Assembly: GCA_000433915.1 (NCBI GenBank)
Contig: HF993646.1
Span: 133,357-197,356, forward strand
DNA length: 64,000 bases
Source of the DNA: Clostridium sp. CAG:793
Lineage (GTDB): Bacteria > Bacillota > Clostridia > TANB77 > CAG-508
Direction of reading: 5' to 3'
The notes under the pieces are model-generated. The model was not told the origin of the DNA. It made no database searches and saw only the letters and a program-made list of their open reading frames with translations. Positions 12,051 through 64,000 of this stretch are shown in pieces. The position numbers and the translations under genes were made by a program. Each line of letters opens with the position of its first letter. Position 1 is the stretch's first letter.

Positions 12051-12397
12051 GTAGTTAATTAAATGGTTGCGTAGTGTCAATACCGAAAGGTGACATACGA
12101 GGAAAGTCCGGGCCCCATAGAGCAAGGATGCTTGATAACGTCAAGTGAGGGTAACCTTAAGGAAAGTGCAACAGAAAATAACCGCAAGATTTATCTTGTA
12201 AGGGTGAAAAGGCGAGGTAAGAGCTCACCGTAGGAATAGTGATATTCCTAGCCGTGTAAACCCCATCCGGAGCAACACCGAAGCTTGGAGGCTAATGACT
12301 GCTCGTCACTCCTAAATTTGGTGGCATGAGATATATAGCAATATATGTACTAGATAAATGACCATTCTCGACAGAACCCGGCTTATAGATTAACTAC
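12051..12397 (+). ncRNA. rnpB: RNase P RNA, bacterial type A
   Basis: Universal blocks GAGGAAAGUCCGGGC, GGUAAGAGCUCACCG, GUAAACCCCAUCCGGAGCAA and ACAGAACCCGGCUUAU are present. P1 pairs GTAGTTAAT (12051..12059) with ATTAACTAC (12389..12397). Confidence 0.95.
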
Positions 12398-12413
12398 ATA
12401 AATTATATAATAG

Positions 12414-13579: not shown

Positions 13580-14590
13580 ATGGGATTTATTGATAATATA
13601 AAAGAAAGAGCAAGAAAAAGCATTAAGACAATAGTATTGCCAGAGAGTGAAGATATTAGAACTCTTAAAGGTGCTGAAATTGTTATCAGAGAAAAATTTG
13701 CAAAAATTATTTTGCTTGGAAATGAAGAAGAAATAAAGAAATTAGCATCTGAAAATAATGTAAGCCTAGATGGAATAGAAATAATTAATCCAGTTAAATC
13801 AGAAAAATTAGACCAATATACACATGAATTATATGAATTACGAAAAAATAAAGGAATGACATTAGAGAATGCAGAAGAAATTTTAAAAACAAATTCAAGA
13901 TATTTTGCTACAATGATGGTTAAATTAGGAGATGCAGATGGATATGTATCAGGAGCTTCACATCCAACTGCAGATACTTTAAAACCAGCTTTGCAGATAA
14001 TAAAAGGCGCACCTGGAGTACGCACTGTATCAGCATTTTTCATAATGTGTCTAAAAGATAAAGAATTTGGAGAAAATGGAGTATTCATTTATGCAGATAG
14101 TGGAATGAATGAAAATCCAACAGCTGATCAATTATCAGATATAGCAATTACGTCTAGTAAGTCATTTTATGAGTTGGTTAATGCAGATGGTGTTCCTAAA
14201 ATTGCAATGCTTTCATATTCTACAAAAGGAAGTGCTCATTCTGAATTAACGGAAAAAGTTGTTGAAGCAACAAAATTAGCTCATGAAAAAGCACCTGATT
14301 TGTGTTTAGATGGAGAGCTTCAACTTGATGCAGCTGTAATTCCGGAAGTTGCAGAAAGAAAGGCACCGGGAAGCAATGTAGCAGGTCATGCTAATATATT
14401 AGTTTTCCCAGATTTGAATGCAGGAAATATAGGATATAAACTTACTCAAAGATTTGCACATGCAGAAGCATATGGTCCATTATGCCAAGGATTAGATAAA
14501 CCAGTAAACGATTTATCACGTGGTTGTAGTGCGGAAGATATAGCTGGAGTTGTTGCTATTACTGCTGTTCAAGCACAAGAAAATAAATAA
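13580..14590 (+). CDS. pta: phosphate acetyltransferase
   Basis: 336 aa with the family-typical short-Pta layout, followed by acetate kinase genes. Confidence 0.92.
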   Translation: MGFIDNIKERARKSIKTIVLPESEDIRTLKGAEIVIREKFAKIILLGNEEEIKKLASENNVSLDGIEIINPVKSEKLDQYTHELYELRKNKGMTLENAEEILKTNSRYFATMMVKLGDADGYVSGASHPTADTLKPALQIIKGAPGVRTVSAFFIMCLKDKEFGENGVFIYADSGMNENPTADQLSDIAITSSKSFYELVNADGVPKIAMLSYSTKGSAHSELTEKVVEATKLAHEKAPDLCLDGELQLDAAVIPEVAERKAPGSNVAGHANILVFPDLNAGNIGYKLTQRFAHAEAYGPLCQGLDKPVNDLSRGCSAEDIAGVVAITAVQAQENK

Positions 14591-14639
14591 AAAGGAGGGA
14601 ATGGGTTTGCTCTAAATTGCAAGCTCATGCTAAAGAATT

Positions 14640-15836
14640 ATGATTATTTTAGTTTTAAATTCAGGAAGTTCATCTCTTAAATATCAACTAATCAATACAC
14701 AAACTAAGCTTCTTCTTGCAAAAGGAAATTTTGAAAGAATTGGACAACAATCAGCTTTTTTAACACATAAAATTGGAGAAGAAAAGCACAAATTTGAAAT
14801 GGATGTACCAGACCATGAAATGGCACTTAATATTATACTTGGAAAGCTTACAAGTAAAACATTTGGAGTTATCTCTGGAGTAGATTGCATTGATGCAATT
14901 GGACATAGAATTGTGCACGGGGGAGACAAATTTACATCGTCTGTACTTATTAATGATGAAGTTATAAAACAGATTGAGGAATGTATACCTTTAGCACCAT
15001 TACATAATCCTGCAGCTCTTGAAGGGATTAAGGCATGCATGGAAATATTGCCTGGAAAGCCTAATGTAGCATGCTTTGACACTGCCTTTCATCAAACTAT
15101 GGCTAAAGAGCAATATATATATCCAATTCCATATAAATATTATGAAAAATATAAAATAAGAAAATATGGTTTTCATGGAATATCGCATGACTATGTATCA
15201 CATAGAATTGCGAGCCTTAAAGGCGTTTCAATTGAAGATTTGAGAATAGTAAATTGTCATTTAGGTCAAGGTGCTAGTATATGTGCAATAAATAAAGGAA
15301 AATCTGTAGAAACATCAATGGGATTTACACCAGTTGCCGGCATACCTATGGGAACAAGATCAGGAGATCTAGATCCTTCTGTTGTAACATATATAATGAA
15401 AAAAGAAAATTTAAATCCTGATGAAATGGATAGAATTCTTAACTATCAATCAGGAATTTATGGCGTATCAGGTGCTTCAGTAGATTTTAGAGATGTAGAA
15501 GCTGAAGCTGCTGCGGGAGATCATAGATCAGATTTAGCAATGAAAATATTTTTATATGATGTAGCTCAAAAGATTGCAGAATATGCAGTTGCAATGCAAG
15601 GAATCGATGTAATTACATTTACAGCAGGAGTAGGGGAAAAGGGCATGGAAGATAGAGAAGCAATATGCGAATATTTGAAATGCTTTGGTGTAAAAATAGA
15701 TAAAGAAATAAATAATCATAAAAATATAGAAGCTAAAATATCAACATCAGACTCAAAAATTGAAGTTTGGGTTGTACCTACTAACGAGGAATTATTAATT
15801 GCAGAAGATACAGAAAGAATATTAAGAATGTATTAA
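14640..15836 (+). CDS. ackA: acetate kinase, copy 1
   Basis: 398 aa with NSGSSSLKY, GHRIVHGG, GFHGISH, RSGDLDP and PTNEEL catalytic blocks. There is no good SD directly upstream. Confidence 0.88.
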   Translation: MIILVLNSGSSSLKYQLINTQTKLLLAKGNFERIGQQSAFLTHKIGEEKHKFEMDVPDHEMALNIILGKLTSKTFGVISGVDCIDAIGHRIVHGGDKFTSSVLINDEVIKQIEECIPLAPLHNPAALEGIKACMEILPGKPNVACFDTAFHQTMAKEQYIYPIPYKYYEKYKIRKYGFHGISHDYVSHRIASLKGVSIEDLRIVNCHLGQGASICAINKGKSVETSMGFTPVAGIPMGTRSGDLDPSVVTYIMKKENLNPDEMDRILNYQSGIYGVSGASVDFRDVEAEAAAGDHRSDLAMKIFLYDVAQKIAEYAVAMQGIDVITFTAGVGEKGMEDREAICEYLKCFGVKIDKEINNHKNIEAKISTSDSKIEVWVVPTNEELLIAEDTERILRMY

Positions 15837-15862
15837 AAGATTAGAAAGGATTATTAGAAATT

Positions 15863-17053
15863 ATGAAAATATTAGTTATTAATTGTGGCAGTTCATCATT
15901 AAAATATCAATTAATTGATATGGACGGTGAAAAGCTTATAGCAAAAGGAACATACGAAAGAATTGGAGAAGCATCATTTTTAACACATAAAATAAATGGT
16001 CAAAAATATGTATTGCAACATCCAGCCAAGACTCACAAAGAAGCTCTTGATTTTGCAATTCAACAATTACTAAACAAAGATTATCCTGCAATATCAAGCT
16101 TAGATGAGATTGGGGCTATTGGACATAGAACTGTTCATGGAGGTGAATATTTTAAAGAATCAGTAATAATTGATGACGAAGTTATTAAGAGAATTGAAGA
16201 ATGTTCAAGTCTTGCTCCAGTTCATAATCCATGTTCTTTAATAGGAATACGTGCTTGTCAAGAATTAATGCCAGGAAAACCAATGGTTGCAGTATTTGAT
16301 ACAGCATTCCATCAAACTATTCCAGAAGAAAGATATATATATCCAATTCCATATAAATATTATGAAAAATATAAAATAAGAAAATATGGATTCCATGGAA
16401 CTTCACATTATTATGTATCACATAGAATTGCAGAAGTTTTAGGGAAACCAATCGAAGATTTAAAAATAGTAAATTGCCATTTAGGTCAAGGTGCTAGTAT
16501 ATGTGCAATCCAAGGAGGAAAATCAGTAGAGACTTCTATGGGATTAACTCCAATATCAGGTATACCAATGTGTTCTCGTTCAGGTGATTTAGATCCATCA
16601 ATAGTAACATTCTTAATGAAAAATGAGAATATGACAGCAGATGATATTGACAATATGTTAAATAAAGATTCTGGAATTTGGGGAATTTGTGGTGTTTCAA
16701 AAGATGTAAGAGACATAGAAGCAGCTATTGATGAAGGAAACGAAAAAGCAAAACTTGCGCTAGAACATTACAAATATAAAATTGCAGAATTTATAGCTAA
16801 ATATGCAGTAGCAATGCAAGGAATTGATGTTATCACATTTACAGCAGGCGTTGGCGAAAATCAAGTTAGAGTAAGAAAAGGAATATGTGAATACTTAAAA
16901 TTCATGGGAGTAAAAATTGATGATGAGAGAAATAAAGTAAAAAGTGAAGAAGCTCTTATATCAACAGATGATTCATCTATCCCAGTATGGGTTATTCCAA
17001 CAAATGAGGAACTTGTAATTGCTCGTGATACATTAAGACTTGTTACGAAATAA
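15863..17053 (+). CDS. ackA: acetate kinase, copy 2 (tandem paralogue)
   Basis: 396 aa with NCGSSSLKY, GHRTVHGG, GFHGTSH, RSGDLDP and PTNEEL blocks, all intact. Confidence 0.9.
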   Translation: MKILVINCGSSSLKYQLIDMDGEKLIAKGTYERIGEASFLTHKINGQKYVLQHPAKTHKEALDFAIQQLLNKDYPAISSLDEIGAIGHRTVHGGEYFKESVIIDDEVIKRIEECSSLAPVHNPCSLIGIRACQELMPGKPMVAVFDTAFHQTIPEERYIYPIPYKYYEKYKIRKYGFHGTSHYYVSHRIAEVLGKPIEDLKIVNCHLGQGASICAIQGGKSVETSMGLTPISGIPMCSRSGDLDPSIVTFLMKNENMTADDIDNMLNKDSGIWGICGVSKDVRDIEAAIDEGNEKAKLALEHYKYKIAEFIAKYAVAMQGIDVITFTAGVGENQVRVRKGICEYLKFMGVKIDDERNKVKSEEALISTDDSSIPVWVIPTNEELVIARDTLRLVTK

Positions 17054-24359: not shown

Positions 24360-24396
24360 AAAATGAGATTTAATTGAGTTTAAATCTCATTTTTTA
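24360..24396. terminator. bidirectional terminator between convergent genes
   Basis: AATGAGATTTAA, a loop, TTAAATCTCATT, flanked by A- and T-runs. It includes the last codons of the recombinase gene. Confidence 0.7.
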
Positions 24397-25387
24397 TAAA
24401 TGTTTGTGGATGTGAAAGTGGATTTGATTCCACTGCATTTCTAACTTGTTCATTGTCAACATGTGTATAAATTTCAGTAGTTGATATGCTTTGATGTCCT
24501 AATAATTCTTGCAATGCACGTATGTCTACTTGACCATATTTATACATTAATGTTGCTGCTGTGTGTCGCAATTTATGTGTTGAATATTTTGTTGTATCTA
24601 GTCCAGCTTTTTGAAGTTCTCTCGCTACTACATTTTCGACTGTTCTCTTACTTATTCGTTGCCTATAACTACTTAAAAATAAAGCTTTGTCTGAATTTTT
24701 AGAATCTTTTTTTGCATTATTAGGACGTACACTTAAATATGAATTTACTGCATCAATACATGCTTTATTTAGATATATTGTTCTTTCTTTATTTCCTTTT
24801 CCTATAACGGTTAATCTGTAATCATCAAACTTAATATCTGATATATTAATTCCAATCAATTCTGACAAACGTAATCCACAGTTTAGGAATAGTGTGATGA
24901 TAGCAAAATCTCTTTCTTTATTTTTATTTTCTTCATCATTTGCTGACACATTTAGTAATTTTTCACTATCTTCCAATGTCAAATATTTAGGAAGTCTTTT
25001 ATTCAATTTAGGTGTTTCTAGATTCTGTGCAGGATTATTCGGTATCATATTAGTTGTTATTGTAAGGTATTTAAAAAATATTCGTATTGTTGATATCCTT
25101 TTTGCGCAAGTTGCTGGGCCACATCTTCTATTGATTGATAAATATGTTATAAAAGTATGAATATCTTCTTGAGTAATTCTTTTTAAATCTTCAATGCTGA
25201 AATCTTTTATTTGTATTAGTTCGAAATCTTTTTCATCAGTTAATTTAAAATGGTATTTCATATATCTTAAAAACATTACTAAATCACAATTATATTGCTC
25301 TACTGAATTTGGTGATTTTCTTTGATATGCTAATGAGTATTCTAAGAATGAATTTAAGTAAGCTGGATTTTCTTCTGTTCTAATCAT
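24380..25387 (-). CDS. tyrosine recombinase, XerC/XerD-like
   Basis: 335 aa with a complete catalytic set: GLRLSEL (Arg), HKLRHTAAT (His-x-x-Arg) and LGHQSISTTEIYTHV (Tyr). It starts 15 nt downstream of prfB. Confidence 0.85.
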   Translation of the reverse strand: MIRTEENPAYLNSFLEYSLAYQRKSPNSVEQYNCDLVMFLRYMKYHFKLTDEKDFELIQIKDFSIEDLKRITQEDIHTFITYLSINRRCGPATCAKRISTIRIFFKYLTITTNMIPNNPAQNLETPKLNKRLPKYLTLEDSEKLLNVSANDEENKNKERDFAIITLFLNCGLRLSELIGINISDIKFDDYRLTVIGKGNKERTIYLNKACIDAVNSYLSVRPNNAKKDSKNSDKALFLSSYRQRISKRTVENVVARELQKAGLDTTKYSTHKLRHTAATLMYKYGQVDIRALQELLGHQSISTTEIYTHVDNEQVRNAVESNPLSHPQTFIKNEI

Positions 25388-25402: not shown

Positions 25403-26512
25403 TTACGAATCATGTACTTGCTTTTTTAAGTATGCATAAATAAAATCGTTTAAATCACCGTTCATAACTTTTTGAACGTCACCTACTTCGTATCCTGTTC
25501 TATGGTCTTTTACTAATGTATATGGGCAAAAAACATATGAACGAATCTGGCTTCCCCATGCTATGTCCATTTGAATACCTTTTAGATCTTCTATTTTTTC
25601 TTTGTTTTCTTTTTCTTTTAAGTTTACAAGTTTTGATTTTAGCATTTTCATTGCAGTGTCTTTATTTTGAAATTGACTTCTCTCAGTTTGACATGCCACA
25701 ACTATTCCGGTTGGAATATGTGTTAATCTAACTGCTGATGATGTTTTATTTATATGCTGTCCACCGGCTCCAGATGCTCTATATACATCCATTTTTATAT
25801 CATCTGGATTAATATATACATCTGCATCATTCGATATTTCTGGTAATACTTCAACAGAAGCAAAAGATGTGTGTCTTCTGCCTCCGCTGTCAAATGGTGA
25901 AATTCTTACTAATCTATGAACTCCGTGCTCAGATTTTAGATATCCATAAGCATAATCACCTGAAACTAAGAACGTTACGCTTTTTAGTCCTGCTTCTTCA
26001 CCATCTAAATAATCTAATTCTTCTATTTTAAATCCATTCTCTGTTCCCCATCTTGTATACATTCTGTAAAGCATTTCAGCCCAATCTTGAGCTTCTGTTC
26101 CTCCTGCTCCTGGGTGAATCGTTATTATTGCATTATTTTTGTCATATTTGCCTGATAATAATGTTGCTATCTCAAGACTTTCTAAATCCTTATCAATCTT
26201 TTCCGAGGATTTTTGAATTTCTTTTTCAATCTCATCATCCTGTTCTACTGACAATAATTCTAACATTTCTTTGACAGTCTCTATTTCATTTTTTACATTT
26301 GCATATTGTGTTATTTTCTTTTTTAATTCAGTTATCCTAGCAAGTTTTTTACTAGAGCTTTCTGCTTCATTCCAAAAAGACTGATCTTCAGTTTCTTTTT
26401 CAAGAGCTTTTAATTCCTGTTCAAGACTCTCTATATTAATTGAATTACCTATGTCTTCAATTTTATGTATTTGTTCATTATTAACTCTAATATTTTCTTC
26501 TAAGTCAAACAT
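25403..26512 (-). CDS. prfB: peptide chain release factor 2, encoded as one uninterrupted ORF
   Basis: 369 aa with an SPF tripeptide (RISPFDSGGRRHTSF) and GGQ (ASGAGGQHINK). The N-terminus is contiguous and there is no in-frame UGA. Confidence 0.95.
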   Translation of the reverse strand: MFDLEENIRVNNEQIHKIEDIGNSINIESLEQELKALEKETEDQSFWNEAESSSKKLARITELKKKITQYANVKNEIETVKEMLELLSVEQDDEIEKEIQKSSEKIDKDLESLEIATLLSGKYDKNNAIITIHPGAGGTEAQDWAEMLYRMYTRWGTENGFKIEELDYLDGEEAGLKSVTFLVSGDYAYGYLKSEHGVHRLVRISPFDSGGRRHTSFASVEVLPEISNDADVYINPDDIKMDVYRASGAGGQHINKTSSAVRLTHIPTGIVVACQTERSQFQNKDTAMKMLKSKLVNLKEKENKEKIEDLKGIQMDIAWGSQIRSYVFCPYTLVKDHRTGYEVGDVQKVMNGDLNDFIYAYLKKQVHDS

Positions 26513-26532: not shown

Positions 26533-27240
26533 TTATTTTTGATATGGGACTCTTTTGAATTCTTCTAATCTAATTTTATATGCTTCAATACAATTTTCTT
26601 CAAAAGCCAATGTCGTGTCTTCTGCTCCCATTAATTTTAATAATTTCTTTGTAAAGTATGGATTTAATACCAGGATTGGCCCTGTTAGATATGTTCCAAA
26701 GAAATTATGATCTTTTATTCCTTCTAACTTACTTTCAGGATTAATTCCTATCCCCTTTTCTACTTCTAAGAAATATGAATTATTATTATTTCCATACATC
26801 ATACTAAATTGGCTTTTAAAGCCTACTACTTCTATGTCTTCAAACTTTCCGATACATAAACTATTATGTCTATGCATCATATCTCTTTTGGCGTAAACAT
26901 CAAAGATGCCTAATCCTTCAATTTTGCTACCATCTTCATTTTCAATATATTTTCCTAAAACCTCTAAAGCATTTCCTGTAAATAAAAATACGGTACCTTT
27001 GTTTATTAGCTCAATTATTCTTTCTTTATAAGGCTGTAGTTTATTTATTACTTTTTCTTGAGTTCTTTCAGTCATAGGACCTAAGTAAATTAAGTTTACA
27101 TCTTCTTTTACAAATGCTGGTTCTTGGTCTATTGATGAGTCTATAAATTCTGCATCTGGCAAACATTTTTTTAAATATTTTATATTACTTATATCTCCAA
27201 ATAGATTGCAAAATTCAGGAAACAATGTTTCTATTTTCAT
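26533..27240 (-). CDS. gatD: GatD-like (CobQ-type amidotransferase) partner of MurT, with the catalytic Cys and His positions substituted
   Basis: 235 aa, starting 24 nt after murT. It is collinear by eye with S. aureus GatD, but reads LFTGNALEVLG and GTYLTGPIL where CGG[YF]Q..LG and GTYLHGPIL are expected. Confidence 0.75.
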   Translation of the reverse strand: MKIETLFPEFCNLFGDISNIKYLKKCLPDAEFIDSSIDQEPAFVKEDVNLIYLGPMTERTQEKVINKLQPYKERIIELINKGTVFLFTGNALEVLGKYIENEDGSKIEGLGIFDVYAKRDMMHRHNSLCIGKFEDIEVVGFKSQFSMMYGNNNNSYFLEVEKGIGINPESKLEGIKDHNFFGTYLTGPILVLNPYFTKKLLKLMGAEDTTLAFEENCIEAYKIRLEEFKRVPYQK

Positions 27241-27264
27241 TTCTAATTTCCTCTCTTTTAGTTA

Positions 27265-28641
27265 TTAATCATGACATTCATTTGCCATTTTTTCTACGTC
27301 TTTTTTGATTTGATTCATTAAATGAATAGTATATATGTCATAAAGAATAAATACTGTATCAACATCTTTAATATTTAAATTTTTAGTTGAGTCTAGTTCA
27401 TTTCGTGTATGAACTATTTTTTCTTCTGGGACTCCTGCTAGTTCTAGTCGTATATAAGTATCCCAATGTCTTGCTCCTGCCGTAATTACTTGTTTTATTG
27501 AATTATCATTTAAAAATTCATAATCTGTATCATAATGCCATGTTATATTTTCTGAGCTATTATGTGCATCATGAAAATCATCTAATATAAGTATTACTGC
27601 TTTTTTTCCTGGTTCTTTTCTTATATAATCAAATACTCTTGAACATGCAATTGGGTTCATTCCTTTTGCTAAATGATTTATTATCTTTTTTCCATTTATA
27701 GTTTCTTCTGAATATCTAGTTTCAACAATCTTTTGCTTTTTTAAAGTATTATTGATTTGCTCTGCTGGCATTCCAAATTCTCTAAGTAATGTTATTACAG
27801 CTAACATGTTGTAAATATTAATTATATTATCTGTTATTAAATCATATTCTTCTTTATTTCCATGATACATTAATGTCATTTTTCTTGCTGGTATATCAAG
27901 GTTTGTTACTTCATAATCTATTTCAGGAGAGCCATAATCACACTTTGGACAATGAGCTCGTCCAATATGATTGTAACGGACATAATCATATTTTAATTTT
28001 GTATTGCATTTTGGACATACAACTATATCTCTTACAATGTTTTGACATTCATCTGTATCAGTATCTAGTCTATCTATTCCAAAATATACTCTTTTATTTC
28101 CTTCTGCTAAATGACATGATATTAAATCATCTCCATTTAGAATAAGTTTTGTCTCTTTTGGAATATATTTATTTAATATTCCTGCAATAAACTCTGAATG
28201 AGCATTTCTTATCATTGAATCTCTAAATAAATTTGTGCAAATTAGATATGTTGGAGTTAAATATGGATATACTTTATTAGCACTACGTTCATCTATTTCT
28301 AATACTGCTATTTTCTTTTTAGTCTTTCCTAAAAGATTAGCACCTTTAATTAATGTTGTTGCAACTCCTGAATTTACATTTGATCCTAAGCTATTATCTA
28401 TTATGTCATAATTATTTGCTTTAAGTACATCTTCTATCATATTGCTTACAGTTGTTTTTCCATTTGTTCCTGTAACTGCGATTATTGTTTCTGGTTTGTC
28501 AATCATGCCAATAAAATCTGGGCATATTGAAACAGCAAATTTTCCAGGAAAATATGATGCGTTACGTTTTAGTATTTTTAATAAAACATTTCCTGCTTTA
28601 GCTCCCCATAGTGCTATATAAAATCTTAAACTTTTTCTCAT
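27265..28641 (-). CDS. murT: MurT-type Mur ligase (lipid II isoglutaminyl synthase subunit family)
   Basis: 458 aa with the VTGTNGKTT P-loop and a CPKC...CPKC zinc ribbon characteristic of MurT. A GatD homologue follows. Confidence 0.85.
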   Translation of the reverse strand: MRKSLRFYIALWGAKAGNVLLKILKRNASYFPGKFAVSICPDFIGMIDKPETIIAVTGTNGKTTVSNMIEDVLKANNYDIIDNSLGSNVNSGVATTLIKGANLLGKTKKKIAVLEIDERSANKVYPYLTPTYLICTNLFRDSMIRNAHSEFIAGILNKYIPKETKLILNGDDLISCHLAEGNKRVYFGIDRLDTDTDECQNIVRDIVVCPKCNTKLKYDYVRYNHIGRAHCPKCDYGSPEIDYEVTNLDIPARKMTLMYHGNKEEYDLITDNIINIYNMLAVITLLREFGMPAEQINNTLKKQKIVETRYSEETINGKKIINHLAKGMNPIACSRVFDYIRKEPGKKAVILILDDFHDAHNSSENITWHYDTDYEFLNDNSIKQVITAGARHWDTYIRLELAGVPEEKIVHTRNELDSTKNLNIKDVDTVFILYDIYTIHLMNQIKKDVEKMANECHD

Positions 28642-29891
28642 TATCCAATTACCTCTTGTATTGATTCTTTTACAATATTTAAACCTTTTAATAATAATTC
28701 ATCTTCAATTACTAATGATGGCATTATTTTTAGAACAGAGTCATAGCTTCCTGCAAGTTCAATTATTAGTTTCTTTTCAAAACATTTATCTAATACTGCC
28801 CTTGCTAGTTTTCCATCATTAAATTCTATTCCCCATGATAGACCTATTCCTCTAATTTCCATTTTGCCTTTTAGTAAAGGTTTAATCTCTTTATCTAGAT
28901 ATTCTTTTACGATTTTCTCTTTTCTTCTTACTTGTGCTGGTATGTCTTGCTCAACAGTCATTTCAAGAGCAGCTAGTCCTGCTACCATTGAAAGCTGGCA
29001 TCCTCTAAATGTTCCATTATGTTCTCCTGGTTTGAATACATCAAGTTCTTTTTTAAATAGTGTTACTGCAAATGGTATGCCATATCCCCCTATTGATTTT
29101 GACATGCATACTATATCAGGTACAATGTCAGCTCTTTCAAATGAGAAGAAAGTACCACTTCTTGAGCATCCTATTTGTACTTCATCACAAATAAGTAGGA
29201 TATCATATTTATCGCATAAAGCTCGTAAATCTTTTAAAAATTCTTTGCTAAATACGTGTATTCCACCTTCTTGCTGAACAGTTTCTATTATTATTGCTGC
29301 TGGTTTTTCATATCCAGAATGATCATCACTTAATAATTGTTCCATGTATGCAATAGAGTCAAAATTTCCACCCATTGAATATGGTGCTGGAATGTGTACT
29401 GTGTAATTAAGTGGAACTCCTGCAGCTTTACGAGCAGCTGATTCTGTTGTTAAAGCTAAAGCTCCTAATGTCATTCCATGGAATGCTCCTGTAAATGCCC
29501 ATATATATGGCCTTTGCTTTACTTTACGTGCCAATTTTAATGCAAGCTCTATAGAATTTGTTCCTGTTGGACCAGGAAATGCAATTTTATAGTCTAGTTT
29601 TCTTGGCTTTAATATTTTCTCTTCAAAATAATTTATAAAATTTTCTTTTGGAACTGTATACATATCAAGTGCATGTACAATTCCATCGCTTTCTAAATAT
29701 TTTATTAATTTTTCTTTGATATAATCAGGATTGTGTCCATAATTTAATGCTCCTGCTCCATCAAAAAAATCTATATATTCATTGCCTTCTGTATCTTTAT
29801 AAATAGAGCCTTTAGCAGATACAAATTCAACAGGCCATTTTCTGCAATAACTTCTTATATTTGATTCATATTTTTCAAATGTTTCGTTCAT
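28641..29891 (-). CDS. class-III aminotransferase, diaminobutyrate-2-oxoglutarate transaminase (EctB/Dat) family
   Basis: 416 aa that tracks EctB along its length by eye: YESNIRSYCRKWPVEF, IDFFDGAGALNYGHN, PGPTGTNSIE, ICDEVQIGCSRSGTFFSFE, SKSIGGYG. Its stop overlaps the murT start (TAATG). Confidence 0.85.
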   Translation of the reverse strand: MNETFEKYESNIRSYCRKWPVEFVSAKGSIYKDTEGNEYIDFFDGAGALNYGHNPDYIKEKLIKYLESDGIVHALDMYTVPKENFINYFEEKILKPRKLDYKIAFPGPTGTNSIELALKLARKVKQRPYIWAFTGAFHGMTLGALALTTESAARKAAGVPLNYTVHIPAPYSMGGNFDSIAYMEQLLSDDHSGYEKPAAIIIETVQQEGGIHVFSKEFLKDLRALCDKYDILLICDEVQIGCSRSGTFFSFERADIVPDIVCMSKSIGGYGIPFAVTLFKKELDVFKPGEHNGTFRGCQLSMVAGLAALEMTVEQDIPAQVRRKEKIVKEYLDKEIKPLLKGKMEIRGIGLSWGIEFNDGKLARAVLDKCFEKKLIIELAGSYDSVLKIMPSLVIEDELLLKGLNIVKESIQEVIG

Positions 29892-29984
29892 AGTTTATAT
29901 CCTTTCTTTTCTGTTCTAATCGATTACATTTTATTACAAATTTGTAATGAATACAAGACTTTATAATAAAAAACTTCTAATAGA

Positions 29985-30011
29985 AAAAGTAGCATTTTAA
30001 GTGCTACTTTT
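29985..30011. terminator. bidirectional hairpin terminator
   Basis: AAAAGTAGCA, a 7-nt loop, TGCTACTTTT. Confidence 0.65.
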
Positions 30012-30115: not shown

Positions 30116-30412
30116 TTAAACATTAGTATAGTACAAAATTTCTTTTCCAAGTTTTTTAGCATATTCAATTTCCAGTTTTGTACTTTCTCCTATATAGTTA
30201 TTTACATTTACTACAAAAATAGCATCTGATAATTCTATCTTTTTAAAATGAGCTTCCCTTAGTTTTATTAATTGCTCTTTAGTCCTTACACTATTCTCAG
30301 ATGTTGGGTAGACTGGTGTAAGAACACAATCTCCTAATAAAGCCAAGTTTTCTGCTACTTCCATCATTTCTTTTTTAAATCTTAAACTCCCACATAAAGT
30401 TACTATTTTCAT
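30116..30412 (-). CDS. hypothetical 98-aa protein
   Basis: ORF with an AAAGGA SD-like element, 15 nt downstream of the hydrolase gene. No confident family call. Confidence 0.6.
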   Translation of the reverse strand: MKIVTLCGSLRFKKEMMEVAENLALLGDCVLTPVYPTSENSVRTKEQLIKLREAHFKKIELSDAIFVVNVNNYIGESTKLEIEYAKKLGKEILYYTNV

Positions 30413-32163: not shown

Positions 32164-32802
32164 TTATTTTTCTATTATGAATTTATTAACCGCGCTTATG
32201 AATATAACTAGATATGATATTGAAATAAGAAATCCACCTAAAACATCACTTGTGTAATGTACTCCTAAATAAATTCTACTTATTCCAATTGTACATATTA
32301 ATAGACTTAAAACTACAATAGAAATCCATTTGATATATTTATTTTTTACATATTTATAAATCAAATATATTAAATATCCGTAAAAAGCCATGCTTATCAT
32401 GGAATGTCCTGATGGAAAACTATATCCTGTTTCTTCAATTATTCTATATTCTGTTGGTCTTGGTCTTTGTAATATTCCTTTTAATAATTGATTTAGTATT
32501 GTTACTATAACTAAGTTTGAAAATATTGATACTCCTATTTTCTTATTTTTTATCACTACAAACAATACTATTGTTAGTACTATTAAAAATATTGCTCCTC
32601 CAAAGTTGGTGATAAACTTTGCTATTGGTGTTACAAAATCTGATATTAAAAATTTGGATATTATCTCATATCCTATTATATCACCATTCATTATTTCTTT
32701 GTGAAATACATCTTCTGCTAGAGCTAAAAATCCAATTAAGCAAATAAATAATATGATCCATTTTAAATTTTTTGTAATAAATTCTTTTATTTTGTCTTTC
32801 AT
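32164..32802 (-). CDS. PAP2-family phosphatase (membrane)
   Basis: KGILQRPRP, PSGH and SRIYLGVHYTSD signature motifs. Confidence 0.88.
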   Translation of the reverse strand: MKDKIKEFITKNLKWIILFICLIGFLALAEDVFHKEIMNGDIIGYEIISKFLISDFVTPIAKFITNFGGAIFLIVLTIVLFVVIKNKKIGVSIFSNLVIVTILNQLLKGILQRPRPTEYRIIEETGYSFPSGHSMISMAFYGYLIYLIYKYVKNKYIKWISIVVLSLLICTIGISRIYLGVHYTSDVLGGFLISISYLVIFISAVNKFIIEK

Positions 32803-38683: not shown

Positions 38684-39729
38684 TCACTCCCGACCTTCGA
38701 AGAACTTGCTCATCGCAAAGCATGCGATAGACTTTGCAAAGTTGCTGTCATCGAATTTTACCTCGCTGATGTTTAAAGCTTTAAAGTCAGAATAGACAAA
38801 ACTGGAAACATCTTCACTAGCTAGTGCTCCTCCGACGATTAAAACGGAGGGATGTACAAAATGCATAAAAGGAATAATTTTTCGCAATACGATGTCTTTC
38901 GCCTCAAAGAGGCTAATTGAATCTGTGTTATGCTCAAAGAGAGTACTGATAGCCTCTTTCTCACATGTGTCAAGAGTAATTAATCCCTTGGCGGGACTAA
39001 TTGTGCACTAATTGAATCTGTGCTATGCTCAAAGAGAGTACTGATAGCCTTTTTTTCACATGTGTCAAGAGTAATTAATCCCTTGGCGGGACTAATTGTG
39101 TCATTTGATAACAGATAAATGGCTTCATTGCCAACATACAGATACCACATGTCATCTAGAAAGTGATCTGATTTCAATATGTAGTAATTAGCTCGTACTG
39201 CCTCGAAAAGTGTACATTTGTCTAGAAACGAAGAACTGTTCAATGATAAATGTGAATTGGAGATAGTGACATCACCTGAGAGAGTTATTGTCCCCTGAAT
39301 AGAAATGCCGACATTTAAGATTTTGTCCTCTTGAGAGAAGAGATGAACTAAAAATGTAATTCTAGACAAAAGACTAAGGTTAGTGTTATTAATGATTGCA
39401 ATAAAACTATCATAGTTTTCCTTAGAGAGCACTTCACTTAATTCAACAGTTTCTTGGGCTAGATTCAGTGCAATGCAGTTAATGTTAATTCCATCAGAAT
39501 AAATGCCAATAAATAATGATGTGTCCGAAATATCAGGATTGATCTTATAAGAATCTCCTCCGTTAATTATTATTCCTTCGTTAAGCAAAGAGCCTACCTT
39601 TTTATTCACAGTAGGCCAACTTACGCCGAGTTTGATTGCGATAGAAAGCTTATTAACTGTTTTCGCACGTACTACTCCTGACATGAAAACATAATCTCCC
39701 TTTAATATTTCGAGTTGCCGTTCTGTCAT
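38684..39729 (-). pseudogene. ROK-like wHTH regulator gene disrupted by a 95-bp tandem duplication
   Basis: The track ORFs 38980..39729 and 38684..38887 join into one frame if one repeat copy is removed. N-terminal wHTH plus ROK-like GI..G / GISIQG / IVGGAL blocks. G/C-richer codons than the surroundings. Confidence 0.6.
38913..39102. repeat. 2 x 95-bp direct tandem duplication
   Basis: Copies at 38913..39007 and 39008..39102 are near-identical, differing at a handful of positions. CTAATTG microhomology occurs at the unit boundaries. Confidence 0.95.
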
Positions 39730-39799: not shown

Positions 39800-40685
39800 T
39801 CAATTGAAATGTAGATGCATACTGATGTTTTGGGTTTTCCGAGCATTGACAAGAGTATCTCCTATTGCAATAGTTCTTCTACTTTGTGGATTTTTACATT
39901 CTCCATAATACCATGTTCCAACAGAATGTCCGTTTGTTATGCATTTTCTTTTTGGAAGTCCAAATTGATTTCTTTTTATAACATTTTTGTTAATAGTTAA
40001 TGTTTTATTCTCAAAATCTACACAATCCCAAGTTAATCCATATACTTCAGATACTCTCATACCTGTATAATATGCTGTAAGAAATGAATAATATATTAAA
40101 TGATTTTTCTTAAATCTATTTAATATCCTTTCTAATTCTTCCTTTGTATATATATGTGCAGGATCACTATTTATTTTATCTATTCTAGGTAAATGCACAT
40201 GTTCGGCAGGATTTGAATTGATATAGTTCAAAGTATAACATGCATATTTGAGTGAACCTTTAATTACTTTTAATATACTATGCATAAATTTTTTTGAAAA
40301 AGCATATTCAACATATATGTTGTTAATAAACTCCTGTAATAATCTTGTATCTAATTGGCTTAATGTATAGAATCCAATTTTTGGTTTAACATGATTTTTT
40401 ATAATATTAAGATAAGATATCGTAGTCGAATATTTTAGATTGAAATTAGCATAAGTATCTATCCAATAGTCTAAAAAATCTGCATACGACATATTTTCTT
40501 TTAGTTGAACTTTCTTACCTCCATAATAAAAATCATTATAGGCTTTTGCGCCTTCTTTAAAAGCCTCTGCTTTTGTTGGATACCCTGACTTTGTTATCCA
40601 TTTTCTTGTTCCCTCAACTGTTGCAATTTCAAATCGGTATTCATATACCTTTCCACGTTTTCTTACGCTTACCATAGTTATCTCT
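39800..40685 (-). pseudogene. tyrosine integrase (phage/ICE type) lacking the C-terminal catalytic third
   Basis: Start at 40685 (GGAGAG SD; MVSVRKRGKVYEYRFE arm-binding N-terminus). Catalytic Arg (GMRVSEVYGLTW) and the beta-hairpin Lys region are present. No His-x-x-Arg or Tyr motif occurs before the stop. Confidence 0.65.
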
Positions 40686-40753
40686 CCTTCATTATAAAAC
40701 TTAATGAAACGGAAAAATGCCAGCATTTCGAATGCTGACATTTTATATAACTA

Positions 40754-51793: not shown

Positions 51794-53203
51794 TTACAAT
51801 TTATATACTTCTTCTTTGAATTTATTTCCTCTGTCTTCAAAATTTTTAAATAAGTCAAAACTTGCACTGGCTGGTGAGAATAATACTACTTCTCCTTCTC
51901 TTGCAACTTCTTTTGCTTTGTTTACTACTTCTTGTAGATTTAAGCATCTGTATATTGGCAAAGTTTTTCCTTCCTTTAGTAATTCATCTTTTACAGCCTT
52001 TTCAATTTTATCAGCAGTTGCTCCCATTAATATAAGTTTTGATACATTTTTTACAATTGGCTTTGCTATTGGTGCATAATCCAAATGTTTATCATATCCA
52101 CCAGCAATTAATACTATTTTTTCTTCAAATGAGTTTAATCCTGCTATTGTTCTTGTTGGGCTAGTTCCTATTGAATCATTAAACCATTTTACTCCATCTA
52201 TTTCTTTTACAAATTCTATTCTATGTTCTACTCCACCAAAGTTCTCTATTGTTGATACACATTTGTCTTCATTTACTAAGCCTAATGTGGCTGCTATTGC
52301 TGCACAAGCATTTTCACAATTATGCTCTCCTCTTAGTTTCATATCTTTTTGTTTTATTAGATGTTTTCTTACTCCATCTTCACAAAGCTTTATAGTTGAA
52401 TCTCTTTCGTCAAATATAACACCATTGTCTAGCAATTCTTTATGACTAAAATATCTAACTTTTCCTGGAGCGTCTTTATAAAATTCTTTTGTTATATCAT
52501 TATCTTTATTTATTACTAATATTCCTTTTTCATTCTGATGTAAATAGATTTCCTTTTTACTATCAATATATTCTTGATAATCTTTATGTACATTTAAATG
52601 GTTTGGAGATATATTTGTTATTACTGATATTTGTGGACTAACTTTCATGCCCATTAATTGAAAACTACTTAATTCAAGTACAACATAATCTTCTGGTTTC
52701 ATATCTTTTATTTGTGTAAATAGCGGTGTTCCAATATTTCCTCCTAAAAAACATGTATATCCTTGTGCTTTTAATATTGTATATATTAGTGTTGTTGTTG
52801 TCGTTTTTCCATCACTTCCAGTTACACCAATTATTGTACTTGGTGTAAGCTTTAGAACTTGCTCTATTTCTGATGTTACAATAGCACCTCTATTAGCTTC
52901 TTCTACTAGTTCTGGTGTTGTTGGTAAACAGCTTGGTGATCTAAATATATAGTCAAATCCTTTTAGATTTTTTAGGTTATCTTTGCCTAAATATGCTTTT
53001 ATATGATATTCTTGTAATTCATTTATTACATCTGAATCTATTTTGTCTTCTTCTCTATTATCAAATACTGATATAGAGCTTCCTAAGTCATGAAAATATT
53101 TTATTAGTGGTATATTACTTGTTCCAAGTCCTATTATAGCAACTCTTTTTTTAGAAATTTCTGTATTAAATTTTTGTAATTTTTCATTTATATATGTATC
53201 CAT
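51794..53203 (-). CDS. murD: UDP-N-acetylmuramoyl-L-alanine--D-glutamate ligase
   Basis: 469 aa with an N-terminal Rossmann-like VAIIGLGTSN motif and the GVTGSDGKTTTT P-loop. Confidence 0.92.
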   Translation of the reverse strand: MDTYINEKLQKFNTEISKKRVAIIGLGTSNIPLIKYFHDLGSSISVFDNREEDKIDSDVINELQEYHIKAYLGKDNLKNLKGFDYIFRSPSCLPTTPELVEEANRGAIVTSEIEQVLKLTPSTIIGVTGSDGKTTTTTLIYTILKAQGYTCFLGGNIGTPLFTQIKDMKPEDYVVLELSSFQLMGMKVSPQISVITNISPNHLNVHKDYQEYIDSKKEIYLHQNEKGILVINKDNDITKEFYKDAPGKVRYFSHKELLDNGVIFDERDSTIKLCEDGVRKHLIKQKDMKLRGEHNCENACAAIAATLGLVNEDKCVSTIENFGGVEHRIEFVKEIDGVKWFNDSIGTSPTRTIAGLNSFEEKIVLIAGGYDKHLDYAPIAKPIVKNVSKLILMGATADKIEKAVKDELLKEGKTLPIYRCLNLQEVVNKAKEVAREGEVVLFSPASASFDLFKNFEDRGNKFKEEVYKL

Positions 53204-63282: not shown

Positions 63283-64000
63283 CTATCTAAGTAGTCTAAA
63301 CCATTTTTGATAAATTTCCGAAATCATTGATATTACTCCATATTTTTCAATATCTTCATTAGCAATTAAATCTATTGTTGCAATATCACTATCTCCATTA
63401 TTAAATCTAACTTCACCTATCTTCTGCCCTTTATGTACTGGTGCATGTATGTTATTAAAAATCTCTATGTTTTGAGTAATCTCATTTGAGTTTGATTTAG
63501 ATAATATTACTCCATAATTTTCTTTTAAAATTGCATTTGTTTCCTTTTTTATTCCTTTTTCAACCTCTACTGTTCCAACGGTATCACCTTTTGTAGCTAA
63601 TTGTCTATACTGATAATTTGAAAATCCATAATCTAATAATTTCCTTGCTTCATTAAATCTTATCTTACTTGTTTCAGCTTTCATTATTACTGCTATAAGT
63701 GATAATCCATTTCTTGTTGCACTAGCTGATAAATTAAATAATGCAACCGATGTTGAACCTGTTTTTAGCCCTGTGCATCCTTCATAATTTCTAACTAGTT
63801 TATTTGTATTTACAAGTTGTGATTTTCCATCCCTTAAAGAGTCCATATATATTGTAGTGTAGTTTGTGATTGTTTGATGTTTTGTTAGCAGTTCTCTTGA
63901 CATTAAAGCAATATCATAAGGAGATGTTTCATGTCCGTCTTCATCTATTCCATGGCAGTTTTTAAATGTGGTATCATTCATCCCGAGTTCTTTAGCTTTT
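63283..64000 (-). CDS. D-alanyl-D-alanine carboxypeptidase (PBP5/DacB-DacF type), C-terminal part; the N-terminus lies beyond the right edge
   Basis: The frame stays open to the window end (...AKELGMNDTTFKNCHGIDEDGHETSPYDIALM). A KTGST-type box (LKTGSTSVA) and a PBP5 C-terminal domain are present. Confidence 0.8.
   Translation of the reverse strand, partial: KAKELGMNDTTFKNCHGIDEDGHETSPYDIALMSRELLTKHQTITNYTTIYMDSLRDGKSQLVNTNKLVRNYEGCTGLKTGSTSVALFNLSASATRNGLSLIAVIMKAETSKIRFNEARKLLDYGFSNYQYRQLATKGDTVGTVEVEKGIKKETNAILKENYGVILSKSNSNEITQNIEIFNNIHAPVHKGQKIGEVRFNNGDSDIATIDLIANEDIEKYGVISMISEIYQKWFRLLR

Follow-up and report, generated by a model that had tools for sequence, protein, structure and literature searches.

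What can a MurT/GatD pair do once the residues that make it a glutaminase are gone? MurT/GatD is an essential cell-wall enzyme and a validated drug target in staphylococci, pneumococci and mycobacteria, and its defining trait is a Cys-His-Asp triad formed between the two subunits. The question is raised by an operon in a 64,000-nucleotide (nt) stretch of Clostridium sp. CAG:793 (GCA_000433915.1, contig HF993646.1, positions 133,357-197,356 of the forward strand), here called the window, to whose numbering all coordinates refer unless another contig is named. Three genes follow one another on its minus strand: an EctB/Dat-type L-2,4-diaminobutyrate (DABA):2-oxoglutarate transaminase of 416 amino acids (aa) (28641..29891), a MurT-like Mur-type ligase of 458 aa without the N-terminal uridine diphosphate (UDP)-binding domain (27265..28641) and a GatD-like protein of 235 aa (26533..27240). 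Our analysis very probably places the pair in a large family, not named before, that is sister to MurT/GatD and occurs in gut and other Clostridia; its GatD subunit has been conserved as a pseudo-glutaminase. A literature search returned no account of a Cys-less GatD, nor of a MurT tied to DABA, cadaverine or B-type walls.

Loss of the glutaminase residues in the GatD-like subunit

The 235-aa protein matched GATase_3 (PF07685) with 44 bits against a cut-off of 27, and scored 71.6 and 68.8 bits on the GatD equivalogs NF052463 (cut-off 450) and NF045636 (cut-off 400). A Foldseek search with its AlphaFold model gave nine top matches, all of them GatD chains, with template modelling (TM) scores of 0.55-0.64; the model, with a mean predicted local distance difference test (pLDDT) score of 65.5 and values below 50 for residues 127-189, was used for fold assignment only. 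GatD is thus the top match in both sequence and fold, and shares with the window protein the GTYLxGP loop that contacts MurT and an extra C-terminal helix. CobQ and CobB have PF07685 and this helix in common with it as well. However, they keep Cys and His, and the ATPase domain to which they are fused has another fold; nothing cobalamin-related was found near the window pair.

The alignment partners were MurT/GatD of S. aureus, S. pyogenes and S. pneumoniae, with the pairs of Ruminococcus albus 7 and Monoglobus added in the multiple alignments; the latter two show that a canonical Cys/His GatD exists in other Clostridia. In these alignments the catalytic Cys94 of S. aureus GatD falls on Gly89 of the window protein (codon 26974..26976, minus strand), or on Thr88 if the register moves by one residue. 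The catalytic His189 falls on Thr186 within GTYLTGP (codon 26683..26685, minus strand), a register that is secure because the flanking GTY and GP residues are conserved. The same positions were read in two larger sets. A genome scan limited to one genome per species returned 80 loci, or 81 with the window, and when 1.84 billion 50%-identity protein representatives were searched, 210 clusters fell at E<1e-30, of which the best 150 were examined. The Cys94 position is Gly in 81/81 loci; among the 150 representatives it is Gly in 132, Ser in 13, Ala in three and Cys in none. The His189 position is occupied by Ile, Leu or Thr at every one of the 81 loci, and by His in 0/150 representatives. In one representative, P0182, a Cys stands one column away from the nucleophile position, and the His is absent. 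Among the best 150 of the 210 GatD-like representatives no Cys or His column reaches 85% conservation.

The loss extends beyond the catalytic pair. The oxyanion hole of GatD is formed with the glycines Gly60 and Gly95 (PMC5871853). Within the family Gly60 has become Pro, Thr, Ala or Ser and Gly95 is Asn in 81/81 loci, the two glycines being Pro and Asn in the window protein. Its R124, an Arg that is 93% conserved, sits one column off GatD Arg128 in a loop that contains indels. Other residues have become fixed in their stead: a signature TGN[AS]xE stands at the former nucleophile elbow in all 81 GatD-like proteins, and an R.N signature is also conserved. A GatD homologue without the glutaminase Cys and His, as an earlier sequence-only reading had described it, is therefore borne out by the alignments, by all 81 loci and by 150/150 representatives. 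The same state throughout both sets argues that the lost triad is neither chance nor a sequencing error.

The ligase subunit and the third triad residue

The 458-aa protein carries the Mur_ligase_M and MurT_C (PF08353/DUF1727, 82 bits) domains and matched S. aureus MurT (7Q8E/6GS2) at E=6e-53. It scored 198.9 and 195.3 bits on the NCBIfam MurT equivalogs, whose cut-off is 800, so that the window pair as a whole reaches 16-25% of the MurT/GatD equivalog cut-offs. Its ATP-binding P-loop GTNGKTT (residues 58-64; 28450..28470, minus strand) begins at residue 58 as in S. aureus MurT, and aligns with GTNGKT/K59/T60 of that enzyme. This motif and EIDE (residues 115-118, matching the Mg-binding Glu108 of MurT) are kept in at least 95% of the 81 family members. 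The four Cys of the zinc ribbon, CPKC (209-212) and CPKC (231-234) (27940..28017, minus strand), are invariant in an alignment that includes canonical MurTs. The Mur middle domain, the P-loop, the Mg-binding Glu, the Cys4 ribbon, MurT_C and the lack of an N-terminal domain are all common to this protein and MurT, as is the order of the two genes in the lipid II isoglutaminyl synthases of S. aureus (SA1708/SA1707), S. pneumoniae, S. pyogenes and M. tuberculosis (Rv3712/Rv3713). By these residues and domains, the MurT-like protein keeps the core of an ATP-dependent ligase.

The region that supplies the triad Asp is different. A remodelled loop, DDFHDAHNSSEN (residues 354-365; 27547..27582, minus strand), stands in for the canonical DNAAD...D349 block and is 3-4 residues longer than in the solved MurTs. 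The DNAAD motif is replaced by DDFHDAH, and Asp349, which lies in the motif G-x-D-x-S-W, aligns with Asn365 in ENITW; three pairwise alignments and MAFFT concur. The sequence-only reading had called this region divergent, which it is, although an acidic residue, the conserved Glu364, is kept one position ahead of the former Asp.

The S. aureus changes C94G, C94S, C94A, H189A, R128A and D349N leave the enzyme inactive or severely impaired with glutamine (PMC3266927, PMC6113224, PMC5871853), and, judged by alignment, the window pair carries natural counterparts of the inactivating changes at Cys94, His189 and Asp349. Since Cys, His, both oxyanion glycines and the MurT Asp are replaced across the family, no glutamine-derived ammonia is expected by the known mechanism. 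The proposal that the pair no longer draws ammonia from glutamine is, for that mechanism, strongly supported by the residue losses and the matching dead S. aureus mutants. Compared with MurT/GatD, the window family has replaced the triad, Gly60/Gly95, FENHGG and DNAAD, and has motifs of its own (TGN[AS]xE, R.NS, RNAH and the longer DD...E.W loop).

Distribution and conservation of the family

All 80 loci from the genome scan belong to uncultured gut Clostridia (CAG-245, CAG-508, CAG-780 and relatives), and the family is near-universal within an order-level group of small-genome gut Clostridia. Its full size is at least 210 clusters at 50% identity, amounting to thousands of sequences. The murT-like gene is directly followed by the gatD-like gene in 80/80 loci, often with an overlap, and a few members are natural MurT-GatD fusions of about 730 aa. 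The GatD-like open reading frame (ORF) is intact in all 81 species-level loci. Mean pairwise identity over these loci is 65.9% for the GatD-like proteins versus 62.0% for the MurT-like proteins, and the former are the better conserved in 68% of pairwise comparisons.

The family also has a cultured human-gut carrier. Vescimonas fastidiosa MM35 has a Cys-less pair of 49.6% identity (141530-143583 of the pMM35_01 record), annotated in RefSeq as 'Mur ligase family protein' and 'hypothetical protein', with an oligosaccharide flippase gene directly upstream. A second MurT/GatD pair was found neither in the 64-kb window nor on the 861-kb Vescimonas replicon. Separately, the GatD-like gene of one metagenome contig (L110, 2884-3726) has a tandem duplication of about 45 aa across the TGNA motif, either real or an assembly artefact.

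Gene neighbourhood of the pair

The usual gene order is aspS, mnmA, a small ORF, murT-like, gatD-like, rlmN, a PP2C phosphatase, a PASTA kinase, rsgA and rpe. A polysaccharide deacetylase lies upstream of the pair in 18 loci, and other loci have a class A penicillin-binding protein (PBP1), a MurJ-like flippase, an S-layer homology (SLH)-domain protein or murE nearby. Taken together, this neighbourhood points to the cell wall. Alanine-racemase-family genes stand beside the pair in two further lineages. In contigs L129 (3673-7856) and L130 an SLH-domain protein, the MurT-like protein, the GatD-like protein (P0182) and an alanine racemase are encoded in an operon-like row. SLH domains bind polyamine-modified D-Glu in Selenomonas, and by analogy the SLH neighbour is suggestive.

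Some neighbours are recorded for completeness. An 81-aa coiled-coil ORF with no Pfam match lies directly upstream of the MurT-like gene in 62 loci (for example L005, 8249-8494) and is missing from the window operon. ATPgrasp_ST-type ligases are found near distant pairs (L123, 951-1964; L110, 6188-7186), the two copies being 36% identical to each other. A branched-chain aminotransferase beside a fused MurT-pseudoGatD (L124) was judged probably coincidental, as it sits with an indolepyruvate oxidoreductase gene. A reading as anti-phage defence was dropped, the PADLOC defence-system models having given no match for any of the three operon proteins.

The transaminase and its linkage to the pair

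The first gene of the operon had been read as a DABA transaminase of the EctB/Dat type. The 416-aa product scored 576 bits on NCBIfam PRK09264 (DABA--2-oxoglutarate transaminase), above the cut-off of 438, but its 546.8 bits on the EctB equivalog TIGR02407 fall just below that model's cut-off of 552.2; on Pfam Aminotran_3 it reached 238 bits. The top solved relative is EctB (6RL5, 378 bits), the next aminotransferase family following at 188 bits. The broader assignment therefore holds, whilst the narrower EctB score is slightly short. The likeness to EctB/Dat is full-length. Here, however, the gene is coupled to a Mur-type ligase (to murE in one locus) instead of to ectA/ectC. A search of the window upheld the absence of ectA and ectC, which were found neither there nor at any transaminase-linked locus, and no DABA decarboxylase was found near the transaminase.

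Linkage of the transaminase to the pair is not random: it occurs in six arrangements over at least three clades of the pair's tree. In the window species the genes lie before prfB. In two separate clades the transaminase is inserted into the standard synteny; elsewhere it is found beside hsp20 and murE, or after rplU-rpmA, there downstream of the pair. Two divergent metagenome operons (L110 and L122) complete the set; they encode the transaminase, the MurT-like protein, the pseudo-GatD and an ornithine-racemase-like racemase. Against the ornithine racemase Orr (NCBIfam NF040742) this racemase gave a full-length match of 338 bits, below the cut-off of 480; no Orr-like racemase gene was found in the window. 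When metagenome contigs were scanned with the transaminase (at least 67% identity), the pair was directly adjoining in 26 of 27 informative loci, and in the lone exception the transaminase overlaps murE. One contig of a metagenome-assembled genome carries two diverged pairs (52% and 56% identity), with a transaminase linked to one only. Within the MurT-like protein, residue 358 (Asp versus Glu), in the DNAAD-equivalent loop, discriminates transaminase-linked pairs.

Two observations concern murE at such loci. Contig L109 (165-8049) has a peptidoglycan side-chain cluster made up of an alanine-racemase fragment, an ATP-grasp ligase, a glutamine-dependent AsnB and a DABA transaminase whose gene overlaps murE; murF is encoded on the other strand. 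The MurE motif reads EDVR in L109 and DDPH in the group of contig L016, versus DNPR in enzymes that add diaminopimelate (DAP).

Proposed function and its alternatives

B-type cross-bridges use D- or L-diamino acids, for example D-DABA in type B2gamma. Other substituents of the D-Glu alpha-carboxyl are glycine in Micrococcus luteus, D-Ala-amide, and cadaverine or putrescine in Selenomonas and Veillonella. Such substituents on the stem peptide were reportedly described by Schleifer and Kandler in 1972 and by Kamio and colleagues. To our knowledge, the enzymes for them and for B-type cross-bridges have stood unassigned since the 1970s.

It is likely that the MurT-like subunit uses ATP to activate a stem-peptide carboxylate on a lipid-linked intermediate, most likely the D-isoglutamate alpha-carboxyl as in MurT, and that the dead GatD is kept as a partner that the ligase requires. 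For the window operon we propose, more tentatively and at somewhat less than an even chance, that DABA is ligated to the D-Glu alpha-carboxyl. The transaminase, translationally coupled to the ligase, would make DABA from aspartate semialdehyde; the nucleophile would be L-2,4-diaminobutyrate or its D-form, not glutamine-derived ammonia; and the product would be a D-Glu-alpha-DABA branch, the chemistry of B-type (2-4 cross-linked) peptidoglycan. In favour of this are the overlap of the transaminase and ligase genes, the six arrangements, the near-constant company of the pair when seen from the transaminase, the racemase of the two divergent operons, the two diverged pairs on one contig and the alanine-racemase-family genes in two further lineages. 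A D-DABA-forming racemase would complete such a route, and where a family member lacks the transaminase, free ammonia or a different amine would serve instead. The proposed reaction would share its chemistry with alpha-substituted walls, in which an ATP-dependent amide bond joins a non-ammonia amine to the alpha-carboxyl of D-Glu on a lipid intermediate. DABA and a diamino-acid racemase are what a B2gamma-type wall needs, and from this we infer a possible link to B-type walls. That the whole Cys-less family puts non-ammonia amino compounds on the D-Glu alpha-carboxyl is a broader view that we consider unlikely. It would have D-/L-DABA, ornithine or lysine serve B-type (2-4) cross-bridges, and D-alanine, glycine or polyamines be added in other lineages; recognition of the amine would fall to the old glutamine site or to the remodelled loop of MurT, and the adjoining transaminase or racemase would set which amine is available.

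Several observations weigh against a ligase for DABA. The transaminase lies within 10 kb of the pair in only 7 of the 81 genome loci, so the pseudo-glutaminase state is older and far wider than the DABA link. Co-conservation of the transaminase with the pair is thus sparse when seen from the pair, but recurrent in its six arrangements and near-absolute when seen from the transaminase; the suggestion in the sequence-only reading of another amine, such as one from DABA, as donor gains from that recurrence and is limited by those seven loci. Linked and unlinked pairs are 65-77% identical with very few differing positions, which is not much for an enzyme that has switched nucleophile. Within the set of 81, the sole GatD-like position that separates loci with the transaminase upstream is the former His (Thr versus Ile/Leu), and in close relatives Thr occupies it in seven loci, one of them without the transaminase. 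As a marker of DABA linkage this Thr was rejected: distant members that also have Thr lack a transaminase in their neighbourhood, and the linked loci L079, L110 and L122 have Leu. The correlation is local and possibly phylogenetic. In L109 the transaminase is translationally coupled to murE, which fits DABA destined for stem position 3. A simpler mechanism also has precedent, S. aureus MurT with GatD-C94G amidating lipid II with free ammonia at pH 8.5 (Münch et al. 2012). Finally, in a sister lineage a 1-nt insertion (L095, 9085-9100; also L093, L096 and L111) splits the GatD-like gene into ORFs of 113 and 128 aa on four contigs from different samples, with the MurT-like gene and a transaminase 88-90% identical to that of the window both intact. 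The insertion could mark a genuine pseudogene or a gene that works in two parts, and it is what speaks for the GatD-like gene being a functionless, decaying relic beside a MurT-like protein that works alone. We find that idea barely credible, given an ORF that is intact at every species-level locus, more often than not better conserved than its partner, always adjoining the ligase, often overlapping it and sometimes fused to it. Moreover, MurT of S. aureus shows no activity with any donor when GatD is left out (Münch et al. 2012).

The precedent just cited is the foundation of the main competing explanation, namely that the pair amidates lipid II to D-isoglutamine with ammonia, the dead GatD being an obligatory structural or allosteric partner and the transaminase feeding DABA to another wall step, such as MurE at position 3. 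We regard this as a realistic, if doubtful, possibility. It explains why a dead GatD is retained, because MurT works with ammonia in the presence of GatD-C94G and does not work alone; the engineered enzyme has the same nucleophile substitution as the natural one, and its MurT needs GatD physically. Free ammonia or ammonium is abundant in the gut, and most family members have no amine-supply gene nearby. The overlap of transaminase and murE in L109, a murE 2 kb downstream in the L016 group and the place of the discriminating residue 358 within a loop thought to read stem position 3 all accord with a destination of DABA at that position. The free-ammonia option of the sequence-only reading thereby has direct experimental precedent, and the sequence data are compatible with it without being decisive. 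However, the C94G enzyme is a laboratory mutant active only at pH 8.5, and at pH 7.5 S. aureus showed no activity with ammonia (Münch et al. 2012). In the natural family His, Asp and the oxyanion hole are lost as well, and other conserved residues have appeared at the site. Ammonia use gives no account of the near-invariant Asn and Glu/Asp newly placed at the old active-site elbow. It leaves two diverged pairs in one genome unexplained, as it does the transaminase inserting nearly always at the pair and not at murE. Nor does it explain the racemase of L110 and L122, since MurE adds L-centres.

An acceptor other than the stem D-Glu was also considered: the carboxylate might belong to another wall polymer, a capsule or teichoic-type polymer, or a small metabolite, giving possibly a DABA-containing amide or polymer. 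Scores far under the MurT/GatD equivalog cut-offs, the remodelled C-terminal substrate loop and the ATP-grasp ligases near the pair in L110 and L123 would fit such a role, and the Mur-family enzymes CapB, cyanophycin synthetase and FolC act on non-wall substrates (PMC11915815). Yet the nearest relatives in sequence and fold are MurT and GatD only, and the architecture is identical to that of MurT down to the missing UDP-binding domain and the zinc ribbon. The neighbourhood is one of housekeeping and cell-wall genes with no biosynthetic island, and the family is near-universal in its order-level group of gut Clostridia. We therefore hold a different acceptor to be improbable. More improbable by far is a glutamine-dependent amidotransferase with other catalytic residues, such as a Thr88 nucleophile. 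A Thr precedes the former Cys in 129/151 sequences, and the strand of the AlphaFold model stops at residue 87, which could place Thr88 on the nucleophile elbow. But the position is Val, Ile, Leu or Phe in some members, the protein has no conserved His or other general base anywhere, both oxyanion glycines are gone and S. aureus C94S is inactive. Thr88 was rejected as a nucleophile on the first two of these grounds.

Operon boundaries and other features of the window

The junction sequences confirm the head-to-tail packing on the minus strand that the sequence-only reading had described. The transaminase stop overlaps the murT-like start (ggaTAATGaga), a strong ribosome-binding site, AGAGAGGAAA, lies inside the 24-nt spacer between the murT-like and gatD-like genes, and a 20-nt spacer separates the latter from prfB, the gene of release factor 2 (25403..26512, minus strand; PCRF and RF-1 domains). 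No terminator was found between the gatD-like gene and prfB, and prfB is probably co-transcribed with the operon, in this species only. It lies outside the conserved module, being missing at that position in 80/80 related genome loci.

Upstream of the transaminase we infer a putative promoter from reading the sequence, a TTGTAT-17 nt-TAAAAT element (29928..29956, minus strand) 37 nt from the ATG; a promoter consensus scan overall gave no enrichment over shuffles. A perfect 16-bp palindrome within this element, ATTACAAATTTGTAAT (29933-29948, minus strand), is a candidate operator for a regulator. Further upstream, a hairpin with a 12-bp stem is followed by a T-run on the minus strand (29985..30011); it likely terminates the preceding upstream gene, which would mark the 5′ boundary of the operon there. 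A riboswitch or other leader was discarded as Rfam gave no match upstream of the operon. The 98-aa ORF upstream (30116-30412) had sub-threshold matches to nucleoside 2-deoxyribosyltransferase and DUF4406, and some contigs that are identical in all else (L089, L090) lack it. Human gut metagenome assemblies contain exact copies of the locus.

The window has a G+C content of about 28%. Its other wall genes are murD (51794-53203), a PAP2-family phosphatase (32164-32802) and the C-terminal part of a PBP5-type D-Ala-D-Ala carboxypeptidase (63283-63981). A second tyrosine-recombinase gene (24380-25387) follows prfB. Between 38000 and 42000 the local G+C rises to about 0.32 around an integrase-like ORF (39800-40741) and a helix-turn-helix (HTH)-like ORF (38980-39729), and this region may be the remnant of an integrated element. 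A bacterial class A RNase P RNA was found at 12051-12401 (279 bits), and a gene read by eye as a phosphotransacetylase precedes two adjacent acetate-kinase-like paralogues of 398 and 396 aa (13580-17053).

Significance

A natural family common in human and animal gut Clostridia has thus dropped the whole triad of MurT/GatD with both subunits still under strong selection. Should ammonia-dependent amidation need the dead subunit as an obligatory scaffold, the family would be a clean natural case of a pseudoenzyme kept for its allosteric role. Retargeting of the ligase to other amines would have wider consequences. Since the pair is repeatedly coupled to a DABA transaminase and to racemases for diamino acids or alanine, there would then be concrete candidate genes for substituents on the D-Glu alpha-carboxyl and for B-type cross-bridges, and predictions of the NOD1/NOD2-relevant muropeptides released by abundant gut Clostridia would change. 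The cultured Vescimonas fastidiosa MM35 makes the family experimentally approachable.

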